From positions 64,001 to 82,566 of the IMG/VR virus record IMGVR_UViG_3300049811_000196: DNA of 18,566 nt. One strand, 5' to 3'. Every line of letters begins with the position of its first letter. Within the stretch, counting starts at the first letter, position 1. The translations under genes and the position numbers were made by a program. Of this stretch, positions 1,357-18,564 are shown one piece after another. The notes beneath the pieces were generated by a model that was not told where the DNA came from, did not search any database, and saw only the letters and a list, made by a program, of their open reading frames with translations. This DNA comes from a virus (taxonomy: Duplodnaviria > Heunggongvirae > Uroviricota > Caudoviricetes).

Positions 1357-1848
1357 TCACCAAGCCTTGCAGCTCCAATAGCGCGGACGGTACTTTGGAC
1401 CAGGATTATCACATTTATGTCTTGCTCTAAATGATTTTCTTCTTTCGGGATCGTTTTTTTTAATCTTCATATTAGGATCTCCGAAATTAACTTTAACTAC
1501 ATTTCCTTTGTCATTTTTAACGTATACGGATCTTTTTTTAGGTCCGTCTGGTGTTAAAAAAGGTTTGTTTAATTGAACTTTACGTCCTTTATATTCGGCC
1601 TCATTTAAGTTATCATCTGCGATGAAATTAGTTTCTTCAACCGAACCATATTCATCTTCTTCAATAGTTTTCTTTTTAGGGACACAGTTAGGTACTTCTT
1701 TACCATTCTTCATCTTTTTACCGACCATTTCATACCCTTTCCAACAGGGGTTCTTGTCTTTATTTTCTATAAGTTTTTTTAACTGTGATTCGGTAATTAC
1801 AATTTTTTTAACAGATGCGGTTTCTTTTAAAATGTTAGAAAGTTTCAT
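1357..1848 (-). CDS. Modular phage protein (probable head-associated): ITESQLKKLIE leader, CWKGY...VPNCVP module, C-terminal FRARHKC...RYWSCKAW module
   Basis: 163 aa ORF; short Cys/Trp modules of a kind I recognise from uncharacterised phage proteins; function unknown. Confidence 0.75.
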   Translation of the reverse strand: MKLSNILKETASVKKIVITESQLKKLIENKDKNPCWKGYEMVGKKMKNGKEVPNCVPKKKTIEEDEYGSVEETNFIADDNLNEAEYKGRKVQLNKPFLTPDGPKKRSVYVKNDKGNVVKVNFGDPNMKIKKNDPERRKSFRARHKCDNPGPKYRPRYWSCKAW

Positions 1849-1860: not shown

Positions 1861-3234
1861 TTATCTTTCTGAAACAATTTCATATTTTATGATATTATCA
1901 TAGAATACTTCTTCATTATATAATTTAGCCTTTATTTCGATAAAATATTCTCTTGGTATATAAATCGAGGTGTCTAAAACAAACGAGTTTTCATTGGTTT
2001 TATCCAATTTTGTCCAATCGTGAACATTGACTTCGGTTTTACCTTCTCGTATGAATATTCTATAATAGACATCATCAAATAGTTCATTACCTTGTCTCTC
2101 TAAAGACCTGAAATAAACGGTAATTTTTCTTAATTCTCCTCTTTTTATTTTTTCATTTTGTTTGATCCCAAAAAATTGAATTTTGTATCTTTTTGCTTCT
2201 GTTGAATTAGTACCAATACTATAATATTCACTATACGGTTTTGGTATAAACTGTTGTGTTACATTACTTATACTAACCCCATCTATATTTAGATTCTTCC
2301 ATACATCCTTAAAGAACTTTTTACCGTCACATGTTATTCCATCTATGTTAAAAGTTACCTTATAAACACCCTTTCTGATTTTGGTTGTTTGTAGGTCAAG
2401 TAATCCTCCTATTTGGGTGTTTGTTGCATCATAGATATCTACGGTAGGATTATTATCGAGGTCGTAAAAATTACCTCCTTTTGTGACATATAAATAAAGA
2501 TTTTGGTTTATTTTTTCTACGAACTCATATCTGTTATCTTCTATGGTATCTTCAAAATAAGATTCAATAAAAGGTTCATAAAATGTTTGTGTGTATTTTG
2601 TAAAAAACGCCACGGATTGGTCTATATCTGGTATAAGATCTTGGTATGATACCGAAAACGCCAACCCTAAACCATAATTCGTTTCTCCAGATAAAATAAT
2701 ACTATTTACATAATTTGTGACATCAACATCTATGTTTTCGTCTCCATTGTCAAAATGGATAGTTTGGATTATGTCAGGATTTGTTGAGTAAATACCTGGT
2801 ATTGTCCAAGTATTTAGGGTTGTTCTATTAAACCAGTTGGATGGTCTTTCATCGAATGTTTTATTTCCTGCGGTAAAATCATATTCGGAGTCTTGGTAAT
2901 CAAAACCGACACCTTCATCCCAAAATTCGTCTAATTTAAATAAAATTAAATCAAATGATGTTGACCTTTCTCTTCCCGTTCCTCTTTTTGCACCCAAGAA
3001 TGTTTCATCACCAAAAATAGTATTGGTTAATTTTAATTTATGAGTGGTTCCGGAAGTAATAACATAATCTCCGTTATCGATTTTAGATTTTATATCTGTT
3101 AAATCGACTTTAAAGATAAATTTTGAAAACCCAGATCCATAGAAGATTTCTGTTGTGGGATTTTTTGCAGTATTTACTTGTGAATCTTTTAATATGGTGT
3201 TATTCTTTTCAAAATATGAACGGAAATATGACAT
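1861..3234 (-). CDS. Hypothetical protein, probable virion structural (beta-rich; DNRLRE/carbohydrate-binding-like N-half, Ig-like C-half)
   Basis: 457 aa ORF rich in aromatic and beta-strand residues; FDLILFKLDEFWDEGVG...NW...W pattern; lies next to a baseplate-like gene. The fold assignment is tentative. Confidence 0.6.
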   Translation of the reverse strand: MSYFRSYFEKNNTILKDSQVNTAKNPTTEIFYGSGFSKFIFKVDLTDIKSKIDNGDYVITSGTTHKLKLTNTIFGDETFLGAKRGTGRERSTSFDLILFKLDEFWDEGVGFDYQDSEYDFTAGNKTFDERPSNWFNRTTLNTWTIPGIYSTNPDIIQTIHFDNGDENIDVDVTNYVNSIILSGETNYGLGLAFSVSYQDLIPDIDQSVAFFTKYTQTFYEPFIESYFEDTIEDNRYEFVEKINQNLYLYVTKGGNFYDLDNNPTVDIYDATNTQIGGLLDLQTTKIRKGVYKVTFNIDGITCDGKKFFKDVWKNLNIDGVSISNVTQQFIPKPYSEYYSIGTNSTEAKRYKIQFFGIKQNEKIKRGELRKITVYFRSLERQGNELFDDVYYRIFIREGKTEVNVHDWTKLDKTNENSFVLDTSIYIPREYFIEIKAKLYNEEVFYDNIIKYEIVSER

Positions 3235-3244
3235 TTTTTTATTT

Positions 3245-3252
3245 ATAAATAT
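3245..3252 (-). promoter_or_regulatory. ATATTTAT motif 10 nt upstream of ATG 3234, overlapping a 12-bp palindrome TATTTATAAATA (3240-3251)
   Basis: Minus strand: GG-ATATTTAT-AAATAAAAAA-ATG; it also contains TATAAATA, the T4 late consensus. Confidence 0.55.
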
Positions 3253-3258
3253 CCAAAA

Positions 3259-4746
3259 TCAGTTAATTTTAATGGATTTATTTAATATGTCATTTTCCAA
3301 ATTCTTTAATAACTCATCCAAAATTTTGTAATTATTATCTGATTTAACCAAAGGTCCAACAATATTATGTTGATGACTGATTAACAAATTTACAATCGCT
3401 CTTAATATCTTTATCAAATTTTCCCCTCTAACGGCAGAAAACGTATTTGGTTCTAATTTTAGAACATAATCTTCTTGAGTGAGTTCATATTTATCCAAAT
3501 CGGTAAAATCTATTGTCGGTGTGGTTTCGTTGGTATCGGTAGAAATCATAAAAATTCTGTCAGACATTATGGATCCAAATGTTTGTTCTTCAGAATTTCT
3601 ATCAATGGTTAAGTTTTTTTCAATTATTTCTTGATTAAATTCTTTTGGATTTACAGAGGTTGCTGACCAAAATAATCCACTTGATGGTCCTACAGTAGAT
3701 ATCTTAATCTTATTTAAGATTTCTTTCTTTATTGCCAATTGATCTTCTGTTCCCGTTAGAGATTTAAAAATTTCTGAAGGTCTGAAGAAAAATGGGTGTA
3801 AATCTTCTTTTGTGTATAAAGAATTTAATTCATTCAAGTTTTTGTCATGTAACGTGAAAATTTTGTCCCTTACTTCATTAGTAACCTGATATATTGATGT
3901 TATTGGAAATGTAAACGTTGGGGATTGATCATTGTTTTCATTTATTAACTTCACCGCAGATATAGGTAATGGTGAATTTTCATTAAAAAAATTTGTTTTA
4001 AATGTTTGTCCCAATGATGAAATCACTTTATAGACATAAAAACGGATTTCCGTTGGATTTGATAGTGAATTTATTTCATATTCGACAATATATTTTAAAT
4101 CCCTACTCTCAGTTCTGGTTTTATTTTTTTTTACGTACTCAACACTTGCTTTATTTGTAAATTTTTTAAGATGTAATTTAGCAACTTTATTTGATCCTAT
4201 TGGGTACGAAACTAATTTTTTCTTTTTACTTAGGTTATTGGTGTCTTTTGTTATTAATTTTCCTCCTCTAAGTATGACACCATTATCGGTAAAAATTGCG
4301 TCAGACCCATATTTACCATAAACCCCATAATCACTTTCTTTTGCGAATATATTTTCGGATTTATCTATGTAAGTACCGGTTTTATTTCTAATATCTGGTT
4401 TGTGTTTTACCGCAACTCCGTATGTTGTGTTTTCAATTTGTTGAGAAAATGTTTGAGAATTAAAATCATACATTGTTGTGAAAGGACCGGCAATATATTC
4501 TTGATTAACAGTTTCTTTATCGGTTGAGTAATTGATTATTTTTACAGATTGACCCTCATTTGGGATGAAATTAATGTTGGTTGGTAGAAATGGATGCGCA
4601 ACAAATGGATCTCTATCACTCCATTCTTCATAATCAATAGACTTTTCTTTTTCCCCAACATAATCGTTGTATCTGATGCATCTAATTCTTCCAATTCCTT
4701 TTGGATCTATATTATTTACACAGATACCGATATCAATTATTTTCAT
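3259..4746 (-). CDS. Putative baseplate hub/spike protein with gp5/VgrG-like N-terminal OB-fold
   Basis: N-terminus IGICVNNIDPKGIGRIRC...FIPNEGQSVKII matches the G-x-V-x-(D/N)-x-x-D-P-x3-GR and P-x2-G-x2-V pattern of gp5-N/Vgr OB-folds; the remainder is unassigned. Confidence 0.6.
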   Translation of the reverse strand: MKIIDIGICVNNIDPKGIGRIRCIRYNDYVGEKEKSIDYEEWSDRDPFVAHPFLPTNINFIPNEGQSVKIINYSTDKETVNQEYIAGPFTTMYDFNSQTFSQQIENTTYGVAVKHKPDIRNKTGTYIDKSENIFAKESDYGVYGKYGSDAIFTDNGVILRGGKLITKDTNNLSKKKKLVSYPIGSNKVAKLHLKKFTNKASVEYVKKNKTRTESRDLKYIVEYEINSLSNPTEIRFYVYKVISSLGQTFKTNFFNENSPLPISAVKLINENNDQSPTFTFPITSIYQVTNEVRDKIFTLHDKNLNELNSLYTKEDLHPFFFRPSEIFKSLTGTEDQLAIKKEILNKIKISTVGPSSGLFWSATSVNPKEFNQEIIEKNLTIDRNSEEQTFGSIMSDRIFMISTDTNETTPTIDFTDLDKYELTQEDYVLKLEPNTFSAVRGENLIKILRAIVNLLISHQHNIVGPLVKSDNNYKILDELLKNLENDILNKSIKIN

Positions 4747-4949
4747 ACAAGTGGTTTATTTCTTTTACCTAATTCTTTATTCACTTTATTATATAAATCT
4801 TCAACATAATCCATATGTCTTGTAAGATTAATAATCAATTCTTTTGTTTTTTCAAACTCTTCACTTAATTCAGACAATACTTTCATTAAATCTGAATTAG
4901 ATTTATTTTCTACGTCATTAACTATTTCAAGTAATTTTTCTTTATTCAT
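4743..4949 (-). CDS. Small coiled-coil hypothetical protein
   Basis: 68 aa with heptad pattern; ATGA overlap with the downstream gene. Confidence 0.75.
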   Translation of the reverse strand: MNKEKLLEIVNDVENKSNSDLMKVLSELSEEFEKTKELIINLTRHMDYVEDLYNKVNKELGKRNKPLV

Positions 4950-4951
4950 TC

Positions 4952-6832
4952 CTAAAAGAATTTCCCCGATGAATTTAATGTTCCGGGTGGGATTACAATA
5001 GCGCCGGTTTGTGACGGTATTATAAATTGTTTATTTGATGTTTTAATATATGCATTTTGATCGATTTCCTCCACTAATCCGTTTATAATCGATTTAATAA
5101 TCTTAGGTAAATTATTTTCTTCCTCAAAAACCGGACCCAATGATATTCCTTCCGATTCTATCCTATTAAAAATATTCAATAACGCTCTTTCGTTACTAAA
5201 CCCAGATTGGGAATCTGAGAATGCCAATAAAAGACCCGGTACAGAAAAACTACCTTTTGTTGAAAGAGCGCTGTCAATCGAATTTATGATGGTATTAAAT
5301 AGGTTATTGCAATTATCAATATCGTTAAACTTTATTTTAAGTTTTAACAAAGTCATCGATTTAATTATTGTAACATATCTCTTATATTTCGTTTTGATTA
5401 TTTGCGAAACAAATGTTTTTATGAAGTTATACAAATCCACCTTTACTCTTTTCCAAAATTCTCTAATAAATGTCCAATATATCTCTTTTATTATATTATA
5501 ATACATTTTTGAAAATCTCTTCATTAAATCCTTACTGTCTTCAATAACGTCATTGTTAATAGATTTATAGATTATAACAATAGGTAAAAAAATTTTTGGG
5601 GATAATACTGACGCAATTAATGCTTTCGGTAAATTAAGTATGAATGTGTTTATTAATGAAATGTTGAAATTTGATTGGGGAATATTTCCGTCCGTGTTTT
5701 CATAAACATCAGAAGATAATTTATTTAATGTTGTTGATATTAATTCATTAATTGGTTTTTTATCACTTAAATAAACAAAATCTTCAAATATGGTTGTATT
5801 AATTGGTGCTTCAAAATTATTACAATCAGTAAATCTCATCACTTTTTTATATCTTGCTTCTTCAAGATCCAAATCAATCCCTTCAACATCATTAAAATCG
5901 AAATAGTATTCCACCGTTTCTTCATTTTCATTAAATAAATCTAACGGATTTTGATTTTTTAATTTGGTTTTATCGACATCGGATCCACAAATAGCAAATA
6001 ATTTTTTTAAAAGTCTATCTAAATCATTTAAACTTTTATTAAATTGAGGATTGTCACTCCCGTCACCCTGTATAGTAAACAACATCGCATTTTTAATTAT
6101 CTCCTCAAAATTGGGAAATTCGACAGATGCAAAATAGTCTGTTAAAAAAGTTTCTGTTGTGATTTCTGAATTAAATTGGGTTAATCCGTTAATGAAAAAT
6201 TCTTGATTTGATGTGCTCCAAGATGCCGTAAATAAATCATCTCTCCCATTTGTGGTGAAAGTGTAATCACTGGACGTAAATGTGTTATATAATCTTCGAT
6301 TGACTTTTTGTTTACCAATATCTGGTGTTTCCGGTTCGTATATTATTTTACCAACGTTGGTTTCGGGATCTATGGTTAATATATTTAAGAAATCGATTTC
6401 CTTTGGTTTTATTCTTACTTCATCTACTTTAATTACTGTATTGGCACCACAAATACCATCACCAGAAAACAATGAAGATTTTATGTTTTTTTCGATGATT
6501 TCTCTACTCGATTCTAGCGTAACTTTTAGAGCCTCTATTGCATTTAACGTTACCTTATCTTTAATTAAAAGATTATTTGAATTTACCAATCCCTTACTGG
6601 AGTCTGTGAAAGTTGAAATGATCTCTAATAATTCCGAAAATATATCTTTACGATTTTCAATTTTCTTTTTTCTATTATCTAGAAATTCATCAAGTTTTTT
6701 TCCGAAAAGTTGATCTGATGATGGGAGGTCTTTTAAATATTTTTCATAAACAGAATCAACGATACTTGATTTGTCATTTAATGAATTTTTTATTGCATTA
6801 AGTTTGAATTTAATTTCATCTATTTTTCTCAT
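4952..6832 (-). CDS. Large hypothetical protein (possible virion component)
   Basis: 626 aa ORF, TAATG-coupled to the upstream gene; no recognisable catalytic motif. Confidence 0.8.
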   Translation of the reverse strand: MRKIDEIKFKLNAIKNSLNDKSSIVDSVYEKYLKDLPSSDQLFGKKLDEFLDNRKKKIENRKDIFSELLEIISTFTDSSKGLVNSNNLLIKDKVTLNAIEALKVTLESSREIIEKNIKSSLFSGDGICGANTVIKVDEVRIKPKEIDFLNILTIDPETNVGKIIYEPETPDIGKQKVNRRLYNTFTSSDYTFTTNGRDDLFTASWSTSNQEFFINGLTQFNSEITTETFLTDYFASVEFPNFEEIIKNAMLFTIQGDGSDNPQFNKSLNDLDRLLKKLFAICGSDVDKTKLKNQNPLDLFNENEETVEYYFDFNDVEGIDLDLEEARYKKVMRFTDCNNFEAPINTTIFEDFVYLSDKKPINELISTTLNKLSSDVYENTDGNIPQSNFNISLINTFILNLPKALIASVLSPKIFLPIVIIYKSINNDVIEDSKDLMKRFSKMYYNIIKEIYWTFIREFWKRVKVDLYNFIKTFVSQIIKTKYKRYVTIIKSMTLLKLKIKFNDIDNCNNLFNTIINSIDSALSTKGSFSVPGLLLAFSDSQSGFSNERALLNIFNRIESEGISLGPVFEEENNLPKIIKSIINGLVEEIDQNAYIKTSNKQFIIPSQTGAIVIPPGTLNSSGKFF

Positions 6833-10688: not shown

Positions 10689-11687
10689 ATGAAAAAAAGA
10701 AAACTGTGGTCATTAAAAGAAATTGATTTTTTAATTAAAAATTTTGATGATAAAACAAACGTGGAATTATCTAAAAAATTAGAAAGAACAGAAAGATCGG
10801 TAGCTAAAAAAGCTAATATTTTAGGGTTAAAAAAAAGTAAAAATCATAAATCAAAATGTATCGCTAAAAGAAATAAAATGGTTGGGAGAGATATAACCGT
10901 AGAGTTAATTATTAAAGAATCTAAAAAATATAAAACTAAATCCGAGTTCCAAAGAAAAGATCCGTCACTGTACTCTGCTGCCAGAAGATTAAATGTGCTA
11001 AATGATGTATGTGAACATATGATACCTCAGTCATTTAGTATACCTCAATTGATATTAAAAGAAATTTTAACTCAATTATTAAATGTAAAAATAATTTATA
11101 ATAGTAGAAGAATTATTAAACCATATGAGTTAGATATTTACATACCTGATTATAATATCGCATTTGAATACAACGGTAAATTATGGCATAACTCCAATCA
11201 AAATGATTTAAAAAAACAAATGATTTGTAATGAAAAGAACATTAAGTTATTTACAATTAAGGAAAATAATAGAAAATATGAAATAGAAATAAAAAATCAA
11301 ATAATAATGTTATTACCAGAAATAAATAACATAACTAATTTAAATTTGGTAAAAGATGATGTGAATAACATCATTCTTGGTGATGTTTTTAGTGAAATTT
11401 ATAATTATAGATCATTGCATGAGGTATGTAAAAAATATACATCATTTAAATCTTTTATTGAAAATGAAAAAAGTATTTACAGAAAAATATTAAAAATTAA
11501 AAAAATTGATGAATTTACTTCACACATGAAGGATAGGAGAAAAAGAAGAACTACAGATGAAATTGCTGCCATAATATCAAAGTACGAATTCTTACTTGAT
11601 TTAATTAAGAATGATCAATCAACATATAGTTATATTAAAAAGTTTAATTTAAATTATTTATTAGAACCTTTAAAAAGAAAAAGATGA
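10689..11687 (+). CDS. Free-standing putative homing endonuclease: PD-(D/E)xK/Vsr-like nuclease core flanked by helical DNA-binding repeats
   Basis: Core YELDIYIPDYNIAFEYNGKLWH...DLKKQMICNEKNIKLFTI; N-terminal Myb/HTH-like WSLKEIDFL...ELSKKLERTERSV; KY-x-(T/S)-x-x-(E/S)F...Y...HM repeats; single gene in the opposite orientation to the backbone. Confidence 0.75.
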   Translation: MKKRKLWSLKEIDFLIKNFDDKTNVELSKKLERTERSVAKKANILGLKKSKNHKSKCIAKRNKMVGRDITVELIIKESKKYKTKSEFQRKDPSLYSAARRLNVLNDVCEHMIPQSFSIPQLILKEILTQLLNVKIIYNSRRIIKPYELDIYIPDYNIAFEYNGKLWHNSNQNDLKKQMICNEKNIKLFTIKENNRKYEIEIKNQIIMLLPEINNITNLNLVKDDVNNIILGDVFSEIYNYRSLHEVCKKYTSFKSFIENEKSIYRKILKIKKIDEFTSHMKDRRKRRTTDEIAAIISKYEFLLDLIKNDQSTYSYIKKFNLNYLLEPLKRKR

Positions 11688-14830: not shown

Positions 14831-15535
14831 ATGAAAGATATTTTTAATAGTGCATATAATATGTTTAACAGCTTTTTAGAAAAAAAAATTGATGATTACT
14901 GGAATAATTTTGGTTATGAGGTAAGAAGAAATCAATGTATGTCATTGATTAATTCATTGAATGATAGATTTAATTTTGAAACATTGAGAGTATTAGAAAC
15001 CGGCGTTTCACAATCTTATAGAGATAGTTTATGGGGATTATTCCTTGGATTTGCAACAGGATTAACTAATGGTAAAATGGATGCTGTCGATATAAATGAA
15101 TTATATGCAGAAAATTCAAATAAACTTTTTAAAGGAATAATACCAAATTTGGATTACCAAACACATGTGCAAGATTCCATATTATTTTTAGAAAACTATC
15201 AACATCAACCAAATATTGTACACTTGGATAGTTGGGATTTAGACTTAAAAAATCCTTTACCATCTGCATTGCATGGATGGAAAGAATTTGTTGCAATTAA
15301 GAATAAAGTACCGAAGGGTGGTATTATTATTATCGACGACAACTATATAGATAAAACATGGATTGAATGGAATTACCCGAATGGGTATTCAGAAAAAATT
15401 GTAACTCAGTACCCCATGACAGGTAAAGGATCATTAATTTATCACCACGTTATTGAAGGAAAAGATGATTGGGAATTGATTGGTACGCATTACAATGATC
15501 ATACAAACATAAAAATAATAATTCAAAAAATTTAA
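14831..15535 (+). CDS. Class I SAM-dependent methyltransferase (Methyltransf_24-like)
   Basis: VLETG (motif I), AVDIN (acidic end of strand 2), QDSILFL, IVHLDS, PKGGIIIIDD. Confidence 0.82.
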   Translation: MKDIFNSAYNMFNSFLEKKIDDYWNNFGYEVRRNQCMSLINSLNDRFNFETLRVLETGVSQSYRDSLWGLFLGFATGLTNGKMDAVDINELYAENSNKLFKGIIPNLDYQTHVQDSILFLENYQHQPNIVHLDSWDLDLKNPLPSALHGWKEFVAIKNKVPKGGIIIIDDNYIDKTWIEWNYPNGYSEKIVTQYPMTGKGSLIYHHVIEGKDDWELIGTHYNDHTNIKIIIQKI

Positions 15536-16095
15536 GACTTTTTTGACTTATTCACCCCTGTAATTTTACCTTTAAAAATAGAATCTCCTACTTTAAGCAC
15601 TAAGGTTTCATTAATTGACTTTGTTTCCTGTGCGGTCAATATTTGATTTAATTTTTCATCTAAAACTTTTCTAACAACATTTTCAACGATTGTTGTGATA
15701 AGATTAATGTCTAAATTAGATGTGTTGTGTGATTGTTTTGGTTTTTCGGATTTTGATGATAGACCCTCTCTCTCCATTAATTTTTTTGCCCCTTTAATAA
15801 AACTCATATCCAATGTATCGTTTAATGATACTTGTGGTATTGGATTTTCAATCATCGCCTTTTTAATTGCATCGGGTAATTTTGATTGATTTATTCTGTC
15901 TACATCAACCATTTGTTTACTATAATTTGTAGGTGGAGTGACTATTTTGGCAACTTCTTCGGGATCAGATCTTAATATATCTTCATTCACATTTCCTTTT
16001 TCAAAATCACCAATCTCTACTTTATCCATTACTTTTTTAGCTCTGACTAATCTACTCATTAAATCGTTTTGTGATATTGATCCTTGTTGTGACAT
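15532..16095 (-). CDS. Hypothetical phage protein
   Basis: 187 aa; SKLPDAIKKAMIENPI segment, C-terminal short beta-hairpin (LVLKVGDSIFKGKI). Confidence 0.8.
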   Translation of the reverse strand: MSQQGSISQNDLMSRLVRAKKVMDKVEIGDFEKGNVNEDILRSDPEEVAKIVTPPTNYSKQMVDVDRINQSKLPDAIKKAMIENPIPQVSLNDTLDMSFIKGAKKLMEREGLSSKSEKPKQSHNTSNLDINLITTIVENVVRKVLDEKLNQILTAQETKSINETLVLKVGDSIFKGKITGVNKSKKS

Positions 16096-16099
16096 AATA

Positions 16100-16107
16100 A
16101 TAAATAT
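16100..16107 (-). promoter_or_regulatory. ATATTTAT motif 4 nt upstream of ATG 16095
   Basis: Minus strand: AAAAT-ATATTTAT-TATT-ATG, in a 20-nt intergenic gap. Confidence 0.55.
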
Positions 16108-16115
16108 ATTTTTTT

Positions 16116-17021
16116 TTAATCAAACATTAAAGATTTAATTCTAAATATAGTTTCTTGAAGTTTATTATCTTCATTTGGTATATTGTTTACTACCTTTATG
16201 TTGTTTTTATTTAGAAAATTGGATAAATTGGATTTAGTATCCATTTCGAATTTTCTTCTTGTTCCTTCACCAGGTTTAATGTTTAAATTACTATCCCTCT
16301 GTTTTTTTATCCAATCATTTTCTTGTGATTTATATAAATCATTTGCGATTTGATTGAATTCGTCAGTTGAGATAAATTTTTGACCATTAACCTCTTTTGG
16401 TGTTATTCTATTTGGTAATTGCTTTGTGTAATCGGGTCTTTCGTCATCAGGAGAAACAGGCGGTTTTTCAATTGGTACCGGTTCTGGCAATTCCTGATCC
16501 GTTGGGGGTTCGGTTTCAGGTTCTCCTGTAATTTCTGGTTCTGGTTTAACTTCTGGTTCTGGTTTAACTTCTGGTTCTTTTTTGATATCTGGTTCTGGTT
16601 TATCTGTCCATACAGATTTAACAAGTGTTCTGACCATTGGACTTCCAGCCTTTTCATCATCTGGATTATATCCCGGTCTTTTTTCATTAAAAACTTCGTC
16701 TTCTAAAACCCTTATATTAGACATTCTATCAATCCTAAAAGTTCTCCAATTGGTTTCGTCAAATCCTTTTTTGGATACGGATGGTGGTTGAACATAAGCT
16801 CTGATTAAAACGTTTCCTTTTCTGCTTAATCCCATTGCAACCGCTTCAGCTCGTATCCTAACACCAGGTTTTACACTATCTTTTAAAGAATTTGTGTTTC
16901 CTTTATAATAAAAAGTAATTGGGTGTCTATTAGTTATAGCATTAACGAGAGACTTGTTCTTACGACCTTTCTCGATGTTTTGTTCGTTAATAATACCCTT
17001 TATTAATTCTTTAAATAACAT
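16116..17021 (-). CDS. WYL-domain protein without HTH; Pro/Glu-rich linker and unknown C-terminal domain
   Basis: AITNRHPITFYY...RAEAVAMG...VLIRAY...WRTFRIDRMSNIRVL matches WYL (AI..R..+.F.Y; R-x-FR-x-DR); then KPEPDIKKEPEVKPEPEVKPEPE...PP linker. Confidence 0.8.
   Translation of the reverse strand: MLFKELIKGIINEQNIEKGRKNKSLVNAITNRHPITFYYKGNTNSLKDSVKPGVRIRAEAVAMGLSRKGNVLIRAYVQPPSVSKKGFDETNWRTFRIDRMSNIRVLEDEVFNEKRPGYNPDDEKAGSPMVRTLVKSVWTDKPEPDIKKEPEVKPEPEVKPEPEITGEPETEPPTDQELPEPVPIEKPPVSPDDERPDYTKQLPNRITPKEVNGQKFISTDEFNQIANDLYKSQENDWIKKQRDSNLNIKPGEGTRRKFEMDTKSNLSNFLNKNNIKVVNNIPNEDNKLQETIFRIKSLMFD
16533..16578. repeat. 18-bp tandem repeat (TTCTGGTTCTGGTTTAAC x2.5) encoding PEVKPE repeats
   Basis: Units start at 16533, 16551 and 16569 (partial), with a degenerate copy near 16588-16602. 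Confidence 0.9.
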
Positions 17022-17398
17022 TAGAAATCAGGATAACCTTTATTTGAATTATATTTATTTCTCGCTACGGAATCAATTCTTACATTTATATCTGTATTTG
17101 ATCCGACACTATTATTTAATTCTCCTTTACCTCTTTCATCACCATCAGATAACGCGTTTTTATTTACTGATGAGTATTCGTTGTTCGGATCATAATAATT
17201 TCTACCGGTGTTATCTATCCTTGTTTGAATATCCACACTAGATCCAACATTACCTCCATTTTCTCCCTTACCTTTTTCATCACCATCAGATAATGCATTT
17301 TTGTTGGTGGAACTATAATTTCCTTCTTGGTTATAAGCATTTCTTGCAAGATGTTCTTGTCTATACTTATTTGCTAAAATTTCAAGTTGTGTTGCCAT
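17021..17398 (-). CDS. Hypothetical protein made of ~2.3 copies of a 47-aa repeat
   Basis: YSSTNKNALSDGDEKGKGE and YSSVNKNALSDGDERGKGE lie 47 aa apart; TAATG-coupled to the WYL gene. Confidence 0.85.
   Translation of the reverse strand: MATQLEILANKYRQEHLARNAYNQEGNYSSTNKNALSDGDEKGKGENGGNVGSSVDIQTRIDNTGRNYYDPNNEYSSVNKNALSDGDERGKGELNNSVGSNTDINVRIDSVARNKYNSNKGYPDF
17121..17302. repeat. Intragenic direct repeat, 141-bp period
   Basis: tctcctttacctctttcatcaccatcagataacgcgttttt at 17121 versus tctcccttacctttttcatcaccatcagataatgcattttt at 17262. Confidence 0.9.
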
Positions 17399-17399
17399 A

Positions 17400-17897
17400 T
17401 TAGTATAATATTAATTTTTTTATTTTATTTATTTCTTCATACAGTTTCATGTTTTTTAATGGTGAAACCGAAGTTTTATGTGAATTACTTTTTATAAGAT
17501 TTACAGGAATTTTAAAGCTAAATTTTTTCTCATGTTTTTTTATATAACTATTTTTTCTTTGTCCATCTATCGCACCAATCTCATCAGCCCTCTTTTTCGA
17601 TTGTTTCCTGTCTTTAATTAAATCACGTTCACCTTTAAGATATTGTTTCGACCAATCAAACATCAAATCTCCCCCGTATAAATCATACCTAACTCTATCA
17701 TTTATCTTATCTATATTTTGTAAATCGTGAATAATTCTTTTTAGTTGCCCATATTTTACCGTTTTGTCTGACAATAATTTTTTTGCTCTTTTAGAACCAT
17801 TTACATTTTTTCCCTCCAACCCCACTATCGTGTGATTTATTTTATCTAATATGTTTTGGGGTATTTTAAATACCCTACCTTTTAGTTCTTTATTCAT
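17400..17897 (-). CDS. Basic hypothetical phage protein with C-terminal KLYEEINKIKKLI motif
   Basis: 165 aa ORF; RAKKLL...LKRI...YDLYGGDLMFDW core. Confidence 0.8.
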   Translation of the reverse strand: MNKELKGRVFKIPQNILDKINHTIVGLEGKNVNGSKRAKKLLSDKTVKYGQLKRIIHDLQNIDKINDRVRYDLYGGDLMFDWSKQYLKGERDLIKDRKQSKKRADEIGAIDGQRKNSYIKKHEKKFSFKIPVNLIKSNSHKTSVSPLKNMKLYEEINKIKKLILY

Positions 17898-18564
17898 CCT
17901 CTTTAAAAAAATTAATTACATCCTCAAGAGATATGTCATTGTTTTTTAACGAATTCTTTAATGACATAAGTTGTCTTTTGACTATTGGATTAATTTCTCC
18001 TTTATCTTTATTGACAAAATCGTGGTTATTCGTTTTTTTTGACAAAATATTGTCAATATATTCTTCAATAAATTTTTTAGGGTTTTCAACTAACCTTACT
18101 TTTTCTTTTGGTAAATCTTCATCATATCCCATCTTTTCCAATCTTTCTTCGGTTTCGTCATCACTTAACCCCAGATCTTTTTTAAAATGATTTTTGGCTT
18201 GTTTAATATCCACATCTTTACCTAGTGTTTCATCATACCCCAATGACTTACTCATATCAGCCTCCGCCCAATATCTTAACGATGTGTGAGTACCATGAAC
18301 TCCATGTGTTCCCATACTACCGGCGGCGGTATTTACAACATCATCTGTCGTTTTTTTCTGAGTAATTCCTTTTGTATTAAAATCTGTTGGTTTTTTACTT
18401 CTCTTGATATTTCCTTTCTCATCTACAATTTCGTCAATGTCTTTTTCTACTTTTTCTGGAATTTTTTCAAAGTCAGTATCTTTAGAAAACTCATTTGCCC
18501 ACTTTTTCCATTTCTTTCTTTCTTTTTTGGGTAATGATTTATCTGAAGATTTCGCATAAAAAAA
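17890..18564 (-). CDS. Partial hypothetical protein (start lies beyond the right edge)
   Basis: The track calls 17890..18315, but the frame stays open to the window end: FFYAKSSDKSLPKKERKKWKKWANEFSKDTDFEKIPEKVEKDIDEIVDEKGNIKRSKKPTDFNTKGITQKKTTDDVVNTAAGS-MGTHG... Confidence 0.85.
   Translation of the reverse strand, partial: FFYAKSSDKSLPKKERKKWKKWANEFSKDTDFEKIPEKVEKDIDEIVDEKGNIKRSKKPTDFNTKGITQKKTTDDVVNTAAGSMGTHGVHGTHTSLRYWAEADMSKSLGYDETLGKDVDIKQAKNHFKKDLGLSDDETEERLEKMGYDEDLPKEKVRLVENPKKFIEEYIDNILSKKTNNHDFVNKDKGEINPIVKRQLMSLKNSLKNNDISLEDVINFFKEDE

Follow-up and report, generated by a model that had tools for sequence, protein, structure and literature searches.

WYL domains are known almost exclusively as sensor modules of the regulators that control DNA-damage and anti-phage genes in bacteria. 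The present work concerns a WYL-domain protein encoded by a tailed virus (Caudoviricetes), on a stretch of 18,566 nucleotides (positions 64,001 to 82,566 of the IMG/VR record IMGVR_UViG_3300049811_000196; hereafter the window). Since its terminal helix resembles the ends of the head scaffold and head protease of the same lineage, this protein is probably a capsid-loaded component and not a classical regulator. The gene occupies positions 16116 to 17021 on the minus strand, where an open reading frame (ORF) of 301 amino acids (aa) starts with ATG and ends with a stop codon at 16116-16118; the plus-strand frame over the same positions contains many stops. The start codon overlaps the stop of the upstream gene, coding for a 125-aa repeat protein, in the sequence TAATG. 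Homologues fall into more than 450 clusters at the 90% level (best E 2e-103), with 141 representatives at 50% identity, so that the ORF is a clear gene, far above chance. Its parts are as follows (with the evidence in brackets).

16116..17021, minus strand: gene of the WYL-domain protein, 301 aa (ORF, homologues, TAATG overlap)
16983..17021, minus strand: N-terminal extension, aa 1-13, MLFKELIKGIINE, with a hydrophobic-hydrophobic-x-Glu end, a possible propeptide (conservation in relatives)
16602..16970, minus strand: basic WYL / Sm-like beta-barrel with a short C-terminal extension, aa 18-140, isoelectric point (pI) 10.1 (Pfam in relatives, AlphaFold model, fold matches)
16422..16601, minus strand: acidic, Pro/Glu-rich disordered linker, aa 141-200 (predicted local distance difference test, pLDDT, 48-71; composition)
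16514..16602, no strand assigned: 18-nt tandem repeat, 4.9 copies, encoding EPEVKP-type hexapeptides in the linker (repeat search)
16167..16421, minus strand: C-terminal domain of the alpha/beta type, aa 201-285, in which the motif PGEGTRR is invariant (AlphaFold model, relatives)
16119..16166, minus strand: terminal tag, aa 286-301, made up of an L-Q-E site and then the amphipathic helix TIFRIKSLMFD (tail profile, core hexamer statistics)

The viral contig from which the window comes is 82.6 kb long, the window being its final 18.6 kb, and is estimated to be 21% complete; it carries genes for a large terminase, a portal that contains an HNH insert, a prohead protease, a scaffold-position ORF and a major capsid protein. 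The 228-aa protease (positions 58925-59611 of the contig) is of the gp21 type (phrog_207, 3e-43) and keeps the LNHP and SSRG motifs in the alignment to T4 gp21; its gene adjoins that of the gp23-type capsid protein (phrog_138, 2e-66), with a very acidic 424-aa ORF in the scaffold position between the two. The nearest cultured relatives of the capsid protein, from Flavobacterium phage immuto and Microcystis phage Mel-JY01, are only about 40% identical, which points to a distant T4-like jumbo phage, and related contigs reach 251-334 kb. Alignment of the capsid protein to T4 gp23 gave an ambiguous maturation site (LINE before AA, or GSFE before T), which was not used.

Architecture of the WYL-domain protein

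The preliminary description, made from the sequence alone, had proposed a WYL domain without its usual DNA-binding partner. By Pfam, the 301-aa protein itself stays below the cut-off for WYL (PF13280; 19.7 bits vs 21.8, over aa 88-105 only), and 71 of 142 relatives match the family at E<=0.01 (best 41.6 bits, 1.3e-10). The AlphaFold model (AF2), built with 142 sequences and with a mean pLDDT of 87, reaches 88-98 over aa 21-130 and contains an Sm-like SH3 beta-barrel with a preceding helix, its strands lying at 35-105 and 131-135. The top solved matches of this model are PafBC, BrxR, DriD and CapW (Foldseek probability 1.0; VIA Z 9.7-8.6, root-mean-square deviation, rmsd, 2.6-5.0 Å over 84-103 residues), with WYL1 also among them and Hfq/Sm proteins at about 6, and many clusters named 'WYL domain-containing protein' match it too. 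By sequence, the PDB gave nothing for the single protein and only weak PafBC/BrxR matches (E 0.01-0.1) for a profile of the N-terminal domain. The two absences proposed earlier are likewise found in both Pfam and fold: no helix-turn-helix (HTH) family appeared in the Pfam search, and only 17 residues stand ahead of the domain's own helix in the model, leaving no winged HTH; no WCX domain matched in Pfam, and in the model the barrel is followed by the disordered Pro/Glu linker.

Among the basic residues of the barrel, R55, R74 and R93 do not vary in close relatives, and R99 is also kept; in a profile alignment, R74 corresponds to the second Arg of the RWHVR motif, and R93 and R99 to the later arginines of BrxR. 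The first Arg of RWHVR is replaced by an invariant Asn (N70), and the canonical W by V or L. CapW senses single-stranded DNA (ssDNA) through RWHVR-type residues (PMC11662680). From the modelled fold we infer that the viral WYL domain may bind DNA or ssDNA.

The other parts of the protein are attached to this barrel. Residues 1-17 form a helix, reading MLFKELIKGIINE and then QNIE, and are an add-on to the fold, as cellular stand-alone WYL models align only from residue ~18-27 on. The leader ending in IINE, as first described, is recovered in relatives: its E13, followed by Q, is invariant in 38 close relatives, and a hydrophobic-hydrophobic-x-Glu site occurs within the first 22 aa of 189 of 259 family proteins. 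The linker of about 60 aa with its tandem repeat was also correctly perceived: it contains 17 Pro and 19 Asp/Glu residues (pI 4.2), and in 121 relatives its length is 49-71 aa, with an identity of only 28%. The C-terminal domain, first estimated at ~70 aa, extends over 85 aa and is modelled at pLDDT ~96, without a convincing fold relative (VIA Z<=5.8, to helical hairpins; Atlas template modelling score, TM, <=0.5, to PIN-like models). A Pfam match to Mer2 was sub-threshold and was dismissed.

These modules are combined freely across the family. Among the 141 representatives, the N-terminal domain is present in 129, the C-terminal domain in 34 and both in 22; the C-terminal domain also occurs alone, duplicated or not at all, many relatives are bare WYL proteins of 100-135 aa, and others have different C-terminal parts. 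Effector fusions were considered by eye for some of these (ADP-ribosyltransferase-like R-S-E ends in P0238 and P0201, a kinase-like part in P0235) and were dropped, as Pfam found nothing; Fic/Doc (21.9 bits vs 24) and 2OG-Fe(II) oxygenase (20.6 bits vs 27) fusions in relatives are sub-threshold leads only.

The terminal tag and the head genes

The terminal motif already noticed in the single sequence is present and highly conserved in the family. It closes 184 of 261 family proteins, whatever precedes it, with the consensus (E/N)(N/P)-L-Q-E-S-I-K-R-I-K-T-L-M-(L/F), and in 122 distinct tails its main residues are kept at 85% (L), 92% (E), 92% (R), 99% (K) and 98% (L). Among close relatives, tag and WYL domain are conserved to the same degree (64% identity), above the 44% of the C-terminal domain.

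A profile of the last 16 aa of the WYL family also finds proteins unrelated to it. On this contig (G000), it scores 16.4 bits on the C-terminus of an unrelated 165-aa ORF, which lies two genes upstream, and 13.5 bits on the N-terminus of a 98-aa ORF outside the window (G000 4080-4376, MKKGKITLEETIKKIKKLN...). In 43 related IMG/VR loci, all 28 matches of at least 10 bits are C-terminal, as are 50 of the 56 matches of 4-10 bits, and the 164-aa counterpart of the neighbour always ends in LFEE(V/I)ERIKKLM(L). In a 287-kb relative (G001, 86% complete), several unrelated proteins begin with the helix (MNLQENIQRIKEMMGL..., MNLQENIQRIKEMMGLISE..., MKKQNLNEQVSRIKKMMGLNE...), which is then followed by L-x-E; these proteins sit in a region dense with ORFs that share short leaders. 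In every tagged case, an (L/I)-x-E triplet stands between helix and cargo. The 301-aa protein has only three [LI]-x-E sites, namely IINE before Q, one in the linker and LQE before T, two of them at tag junctions, and in the 165-aa neighbour the sole such site is LYE, right before the tag EINKIKKLILY (17403-17444). As judged from these profile matches, the terminal motif is shown to be a portable tag, common to unrelated proteins and strictly terminal.

A second type of leader was observed in the same relative, at 111-140 kb, where 9 ORFs, vs 0.09 expected, have [ILVF]TES[QE] in their first 7 residues (for example MKIIITESQLKK).

Is this tag related to the head? Its core, R[IM]K.[LM]M, occurs only three times in the 112 ORFs of this contig, at the C-termini of the protease, the scaffold and the WYL protein, and five times in the 404 ORFs of the 287-kb relative, always terminal (protease, scaffold and three N-terminal leaders); composition-preserving shuffles yield about 0.1 matches. 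Across 80 loci fetched by the capsid protein alone, the broader pattern R[IMFLV]K.[LMI][MIL] is found within the last 22 aa in 69 of the 81 scaffold tails and in 34 of the 77 protease tails, the remaining protease tails being mostly near variants such as RMSKLMG and KMKNLMS, and some scaffold tails (PQFSRIKEMMRKIK, IRRIKEMMGIVK) are nearly identical to the leader sequence. The protease tail also aligns with the own C-terminal helix of T4 gp21, which comes after KEITE, cut before SQ. A link between the tag of the WYL protein and the tails of scaffold and protease is thus suggestive at the level of these short motifs.

Beside the second type of leader may be set a 163-aa ORF of the window (1357-1848, minus strand), which carries KKIVITESQLKKLI at aa 14-27, and T4 gp21, which has KEITESQ ahead of its C-terminal helix.

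Conserved operon and core-gene status

The WYL gene lies within a conserved block of late genes, the members of which are listed below as they occur in the window.

17890..18564, minus strand: opening gene of the operon, truncated at the contig end, ~248 aa in relatives (relatives' loci)
17400..17897, minus strand: 165-aa operon partner with the same terminal tag (tail profile, model)
17021..17398, minus strand: 125-aa repeat protein, directly upstream of the WYL gene and translationally coupled to it (overlap, relatives)
15532..16095, minus strand: 187-aa gene, last of the conserved block, with ATATTTAT at 16100-16107, 4 nt ahead of its ATG

In 44 loci found through the WYL protein itself, the order p248, p164, repeat protein, WYL, p199, glycosyltransferase is kept in 38-42, and the block is usually divergent from a 1150-aa ORF. 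Of 296 ORFs in the 287-kb relative, 44 have the octamer ATATTTAT in the 40 nt upstream, against 1.8 expected. Its variant [AG]TATTTAT precedes 60 ORFs, including those of scaffold, protease and terminase, several large ORFs next to the operon and many leader-bearing ORFs, and in 41 of 41 loci it stands ahead of the gene with which the operon begins. This promoter-like octamer is likely the late promoter of the clade, as suggested by its distribution over these genes. In five large contigs chosen by their capsid protein only, the WYL gene is present five times out of five, with one copy each (one of them apparently split across frames), and is therefore a single-copy core gene of the clade, a large group of uncultured T4-like jumbo phages that is present in freshwater and marine samples. 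In a 251-kb relative (L155-L157, G003 60120-60486), the match to the WYL gene is broken into three pieces that follow each other in different frames, from either a frameshifted copy or assembly errors.

The operon had been called virion-like, which is not shown by annotation: PHROGs holds no family for the WYL protein, for its four operon neighbours or for the large ORFs at 1861-6832. The 125-aa protein (17021-17398, minus strand) consists of two copies of a 47-aa repeat (...NKNALSDGDE(K/R)GKGE...) and belongs to no known family; as it reaches 219 aa in most relatives, the repeat number varies. In the AlphaFold model of the 165-aa neighbour, a helical domain is followed by a disordered stretch and then by a free terminal helix; this protein has no match among solved structures (best Z 5.2). 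In the AlphaFold DB, its helical domain resembles C-terminal domains of proteins named 'prohead serine protease', of XkdF, of portals and of small 'DNA-binding proteins', with probabilities of 0.95-1.0 and weak E-values of 0.01-0.6.

Elsewhere, the window encodes a dCMP deaminase, PhoH, a dUTPase, glycosyltransferases and a late-sigma-like ORF. A homing-endonuclease-like ORF (10689-11687, plus strand; phrog_3339, 4e-17) lies on the opposite strand between a HAD-like gene and phoH, and is missing from that site in most relatives. In the 994-aa portal ORF, outside the window (G000 54449-57433; L004:7450-10434), the portal domain is preceded by matches to HNH endonucleases (aa ~120-285), which suggests an inserted or fused homing-endonuclease-like module.

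Proposed capsid loading, its alternatives and known systems

What does a sensor fold do as a late, conserved protein of a jumbo phage? In T4, a capsid targeting sequence (CTS) loads otherwise unrelated proteins into the prohead core and is cut off by gp21 after (L/I)-x-E; the same protease trims both ends of Alt and is itself processed at its own C-terminus (PMC9026906, PMC3012670). In the reading to which we give roughly an even chance, the late single-copy core protein would be a WYL cargo, loaded into the prohead, trimmed by the protease, bound to nucleic acid in the head and travelling with the genome. The terminal helix would dock the protein into the assembling prohead core; the prohead protease would then cut at L-Q-E just ahead of the helix, and perhaps also at I-N-E after residue 13; the trimmed protein (~Q14-E290) would stay on the packaged DNA via its WYL domain, and might finally enter the host with this DNA, like T4 Alt and the internal proteins. 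Packaging may reasonably be inferred from the portable head-like tag, the (L/I)-x-E junction, the nearby gp21-type protease and the shared promoter-like motif.

Several observations weigh against this reading. The profile of the family tails scores only 3.9 and 2.0 bits on scaffold and protease, which is not significant, so that the likeness is confined to a core of 6-8 residues. Reciprocally, profiles of the scaffold or protease tails find N-terminal leaders and the tail of the 164-aa neighbour as next-best matches, at independent E-values (iE) of only 0.03-0.2, and do not retrieve the WYL protein's own tail. Moreover, the hexamer pattern was written after the resemblance had been seen, and for these reasons the connection between tag and head is suggestive and chained. 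In this protein the terminal helix, at pLDDT 81-91, may pack on the C-terminal domain. A profile of the N-terminal leader had no significant match outside the WYL family, and the leader could be a plain part of the viral WYL domain; thus, of the head-protein-like terminal motifs put forward in the preliminary description, the C-terminal one is supported, being portable and similar to the C-termini of scaffold and protease, and the IINE leader, kept in the WYL family and not significantly shared, is not. The gene is also a fixed single-copy core gene, unlike the variable internal proteins of T4, and neither the protein (tblastn) nor the window (megablast) had a match among 50,697 records of cultured phages.

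Part of the same evidence could be accommodated by a WYL protein that stays behind. As an accessory of the prohead core or of packaging, it would organise or hold the incoming DNA, or be expelled with the scaffold, with no role in the next host. A core, single-copy, syntenic gene beside head and other large late genes fits such a function, and the core of the tag is common to scaffold and protease, which are themselves removed; the weak resemblance of the helical domain of the 165-aa partner to domains of portals, XkdF and protease-fused proteins points the same way, as does a viral Atlas cluster modelled with a WYL-like barrel, 36% of whose members carry Peptidase_S78_2; both of these weak leads are equally in line with the cargo reading. 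With only three [LI]-x-E sites, however, the WYL protein would survive maturation largely intact, which is the behaviour of the head-retained proteins of T4 and not of its scaffold (PMC9026906). We regard an accessory of this kind as rather improbable, though it is the strongest of the alternatives to capsid delivery.

A little less probable still is a cytoplasmic late protein that is never packaged. Its helix would then serve for membrane binding (in the manner of MinD or FtsA tails), for docking to the clamp or to a sigma factor, or as a degradation tag for a Clp ATPase, and its WYL domain would sense a nucleic acid or nucleotide. The helix is indeed a generic basic amphipathic one, the late-sigma-like ORF ends in ...MKKFKKLYSNILGEFLD, a weak 2.3-bit match to the tail profile, and WYL domains elsewhere are sensors fused to effectors (PMC4012209). 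The conservation of the L, E, R, K and L residues of the tag, at 92-99%, nevertheless exceeds the needs of a membrane helix, the presence of the same core on scaffold and prohead protease points to the head, and the L-x-E triplet always stands on the cargo side of the helix.

The least likely proposal, and in our view a poor candidate, is that the packaged, HTH-less WYL protein is an injected decoy, of which hundreds of copies would mop up the ssDNA alarm of CapW, BrxR and DriD, or poison host CapW/BrxR regulators, so that defence operons stay repressed and silent in the first minutes of infection. It would share the packaging signals of the cargo reading, its fold is nearest to ssDNA-sensing regulators, its domain is basic, and R74 and R93/R99 are kept relative to BrxR; against this, no defence system is linked to the WYL gene; counter-defence genes usually vary, and this one belongs to the single-copy core, in a late operon of fixed position; the first Arg of RWHVR and the canonical W are replaced; and poisoning by hetero-dimers is unlikely because the dimer-forming linker helices and WCX of the regulators are missing.

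Taken together, the data describe a sensor fold that, throughout a clade of giant phages, has become a conserved late protein, having lost its DNA-reading parts and gained an apparent capsid label from the head scaffold. If packaging is true, this would provide a defined, portable tag, usable at either protein end, for loading T4-type capsids; a first functional context for many unstudied stand-alone WYL proteins; and, accompanying a jumbo-phage genome, a candidate nucleic-acid-binding protein whose role could be that of a DNA anchor, an end protector or an ssDNA sponge. Should the last of these apply, the phage would turn the host's own sensor fold against the host.

How does this protein compare with known systems? 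With the wHTH-WYL-WCX regulators (CapW, BrxR, DriD, PafBC; wHTH, winged HTH) it shares the central Sm-like WYL barrel and several basic residues of the groove. It differs from them in lacking the winged HTH, the dimer module of linker helices and the WCX domain, in the replacement of the W of the canonical WYL triad and of the first RWHVR Arg, in the insertion of a conserved SVSKKGF loop, and in being late, phage-encoded and equipped with terminal tags. A barrel without HTH is likewise found in stand-alone WYL proteins (AlphaFold DB clusters of 73-196 aa, and viral BFVD entries named 'WYL domain containing protein'), one 95-aa entry of which matches the model with a TM of 0.80 by hit and an rmsd of 2.2 Å. 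Such HTH-less proteins are common in databases yet unstudied, and they are bare domains, devoid of N-terminal extension, Pro/Glu linker, second domain and terminal tag. The earlier statement that no system of this kind had been described was therefore too strong, given these numerous stand-alone proteins and, as a described analogue, the CTS of T4 with its doubly trimmed Alt.

The herpesvirus assemblin and scaffold, the HK97 protease and the P22 scaffold have C-terminal coat-binding tails, common to scaffold and protease. In the present lineage, scaffold and maturation protease likewise appear to share a short helix at their ends, preceded by a protease site; the difference is that the helix is here also borrowed by non-assembly proteins, its binding to the capsid protein being putative. 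Another parallel is offered by IPI-III and Alt of T4, where a short terminal peptide bounded by (L/I)-x-E is likewise common to unrelated proteins, in a phage with the same gp21-, gp22- and gp23-type head genes. The tag LQE-x-I-x-RIK-x-LM has no sequence likeness to the T4 CTS (MKTYQEFIAE), so that the relation is one of analogy and not homology; it also differs in its occurrence at either protein end and in its resemblance to the C-termini of scaffold and protease. The CTS of T4 is well known; what is new is a WYL domain as the cargo, a tag placed at either end, the likeness of this tag to scaffold and protease tails, and the status of the cargo as a conserved core gene, where the internal proteins of T4 are variable.

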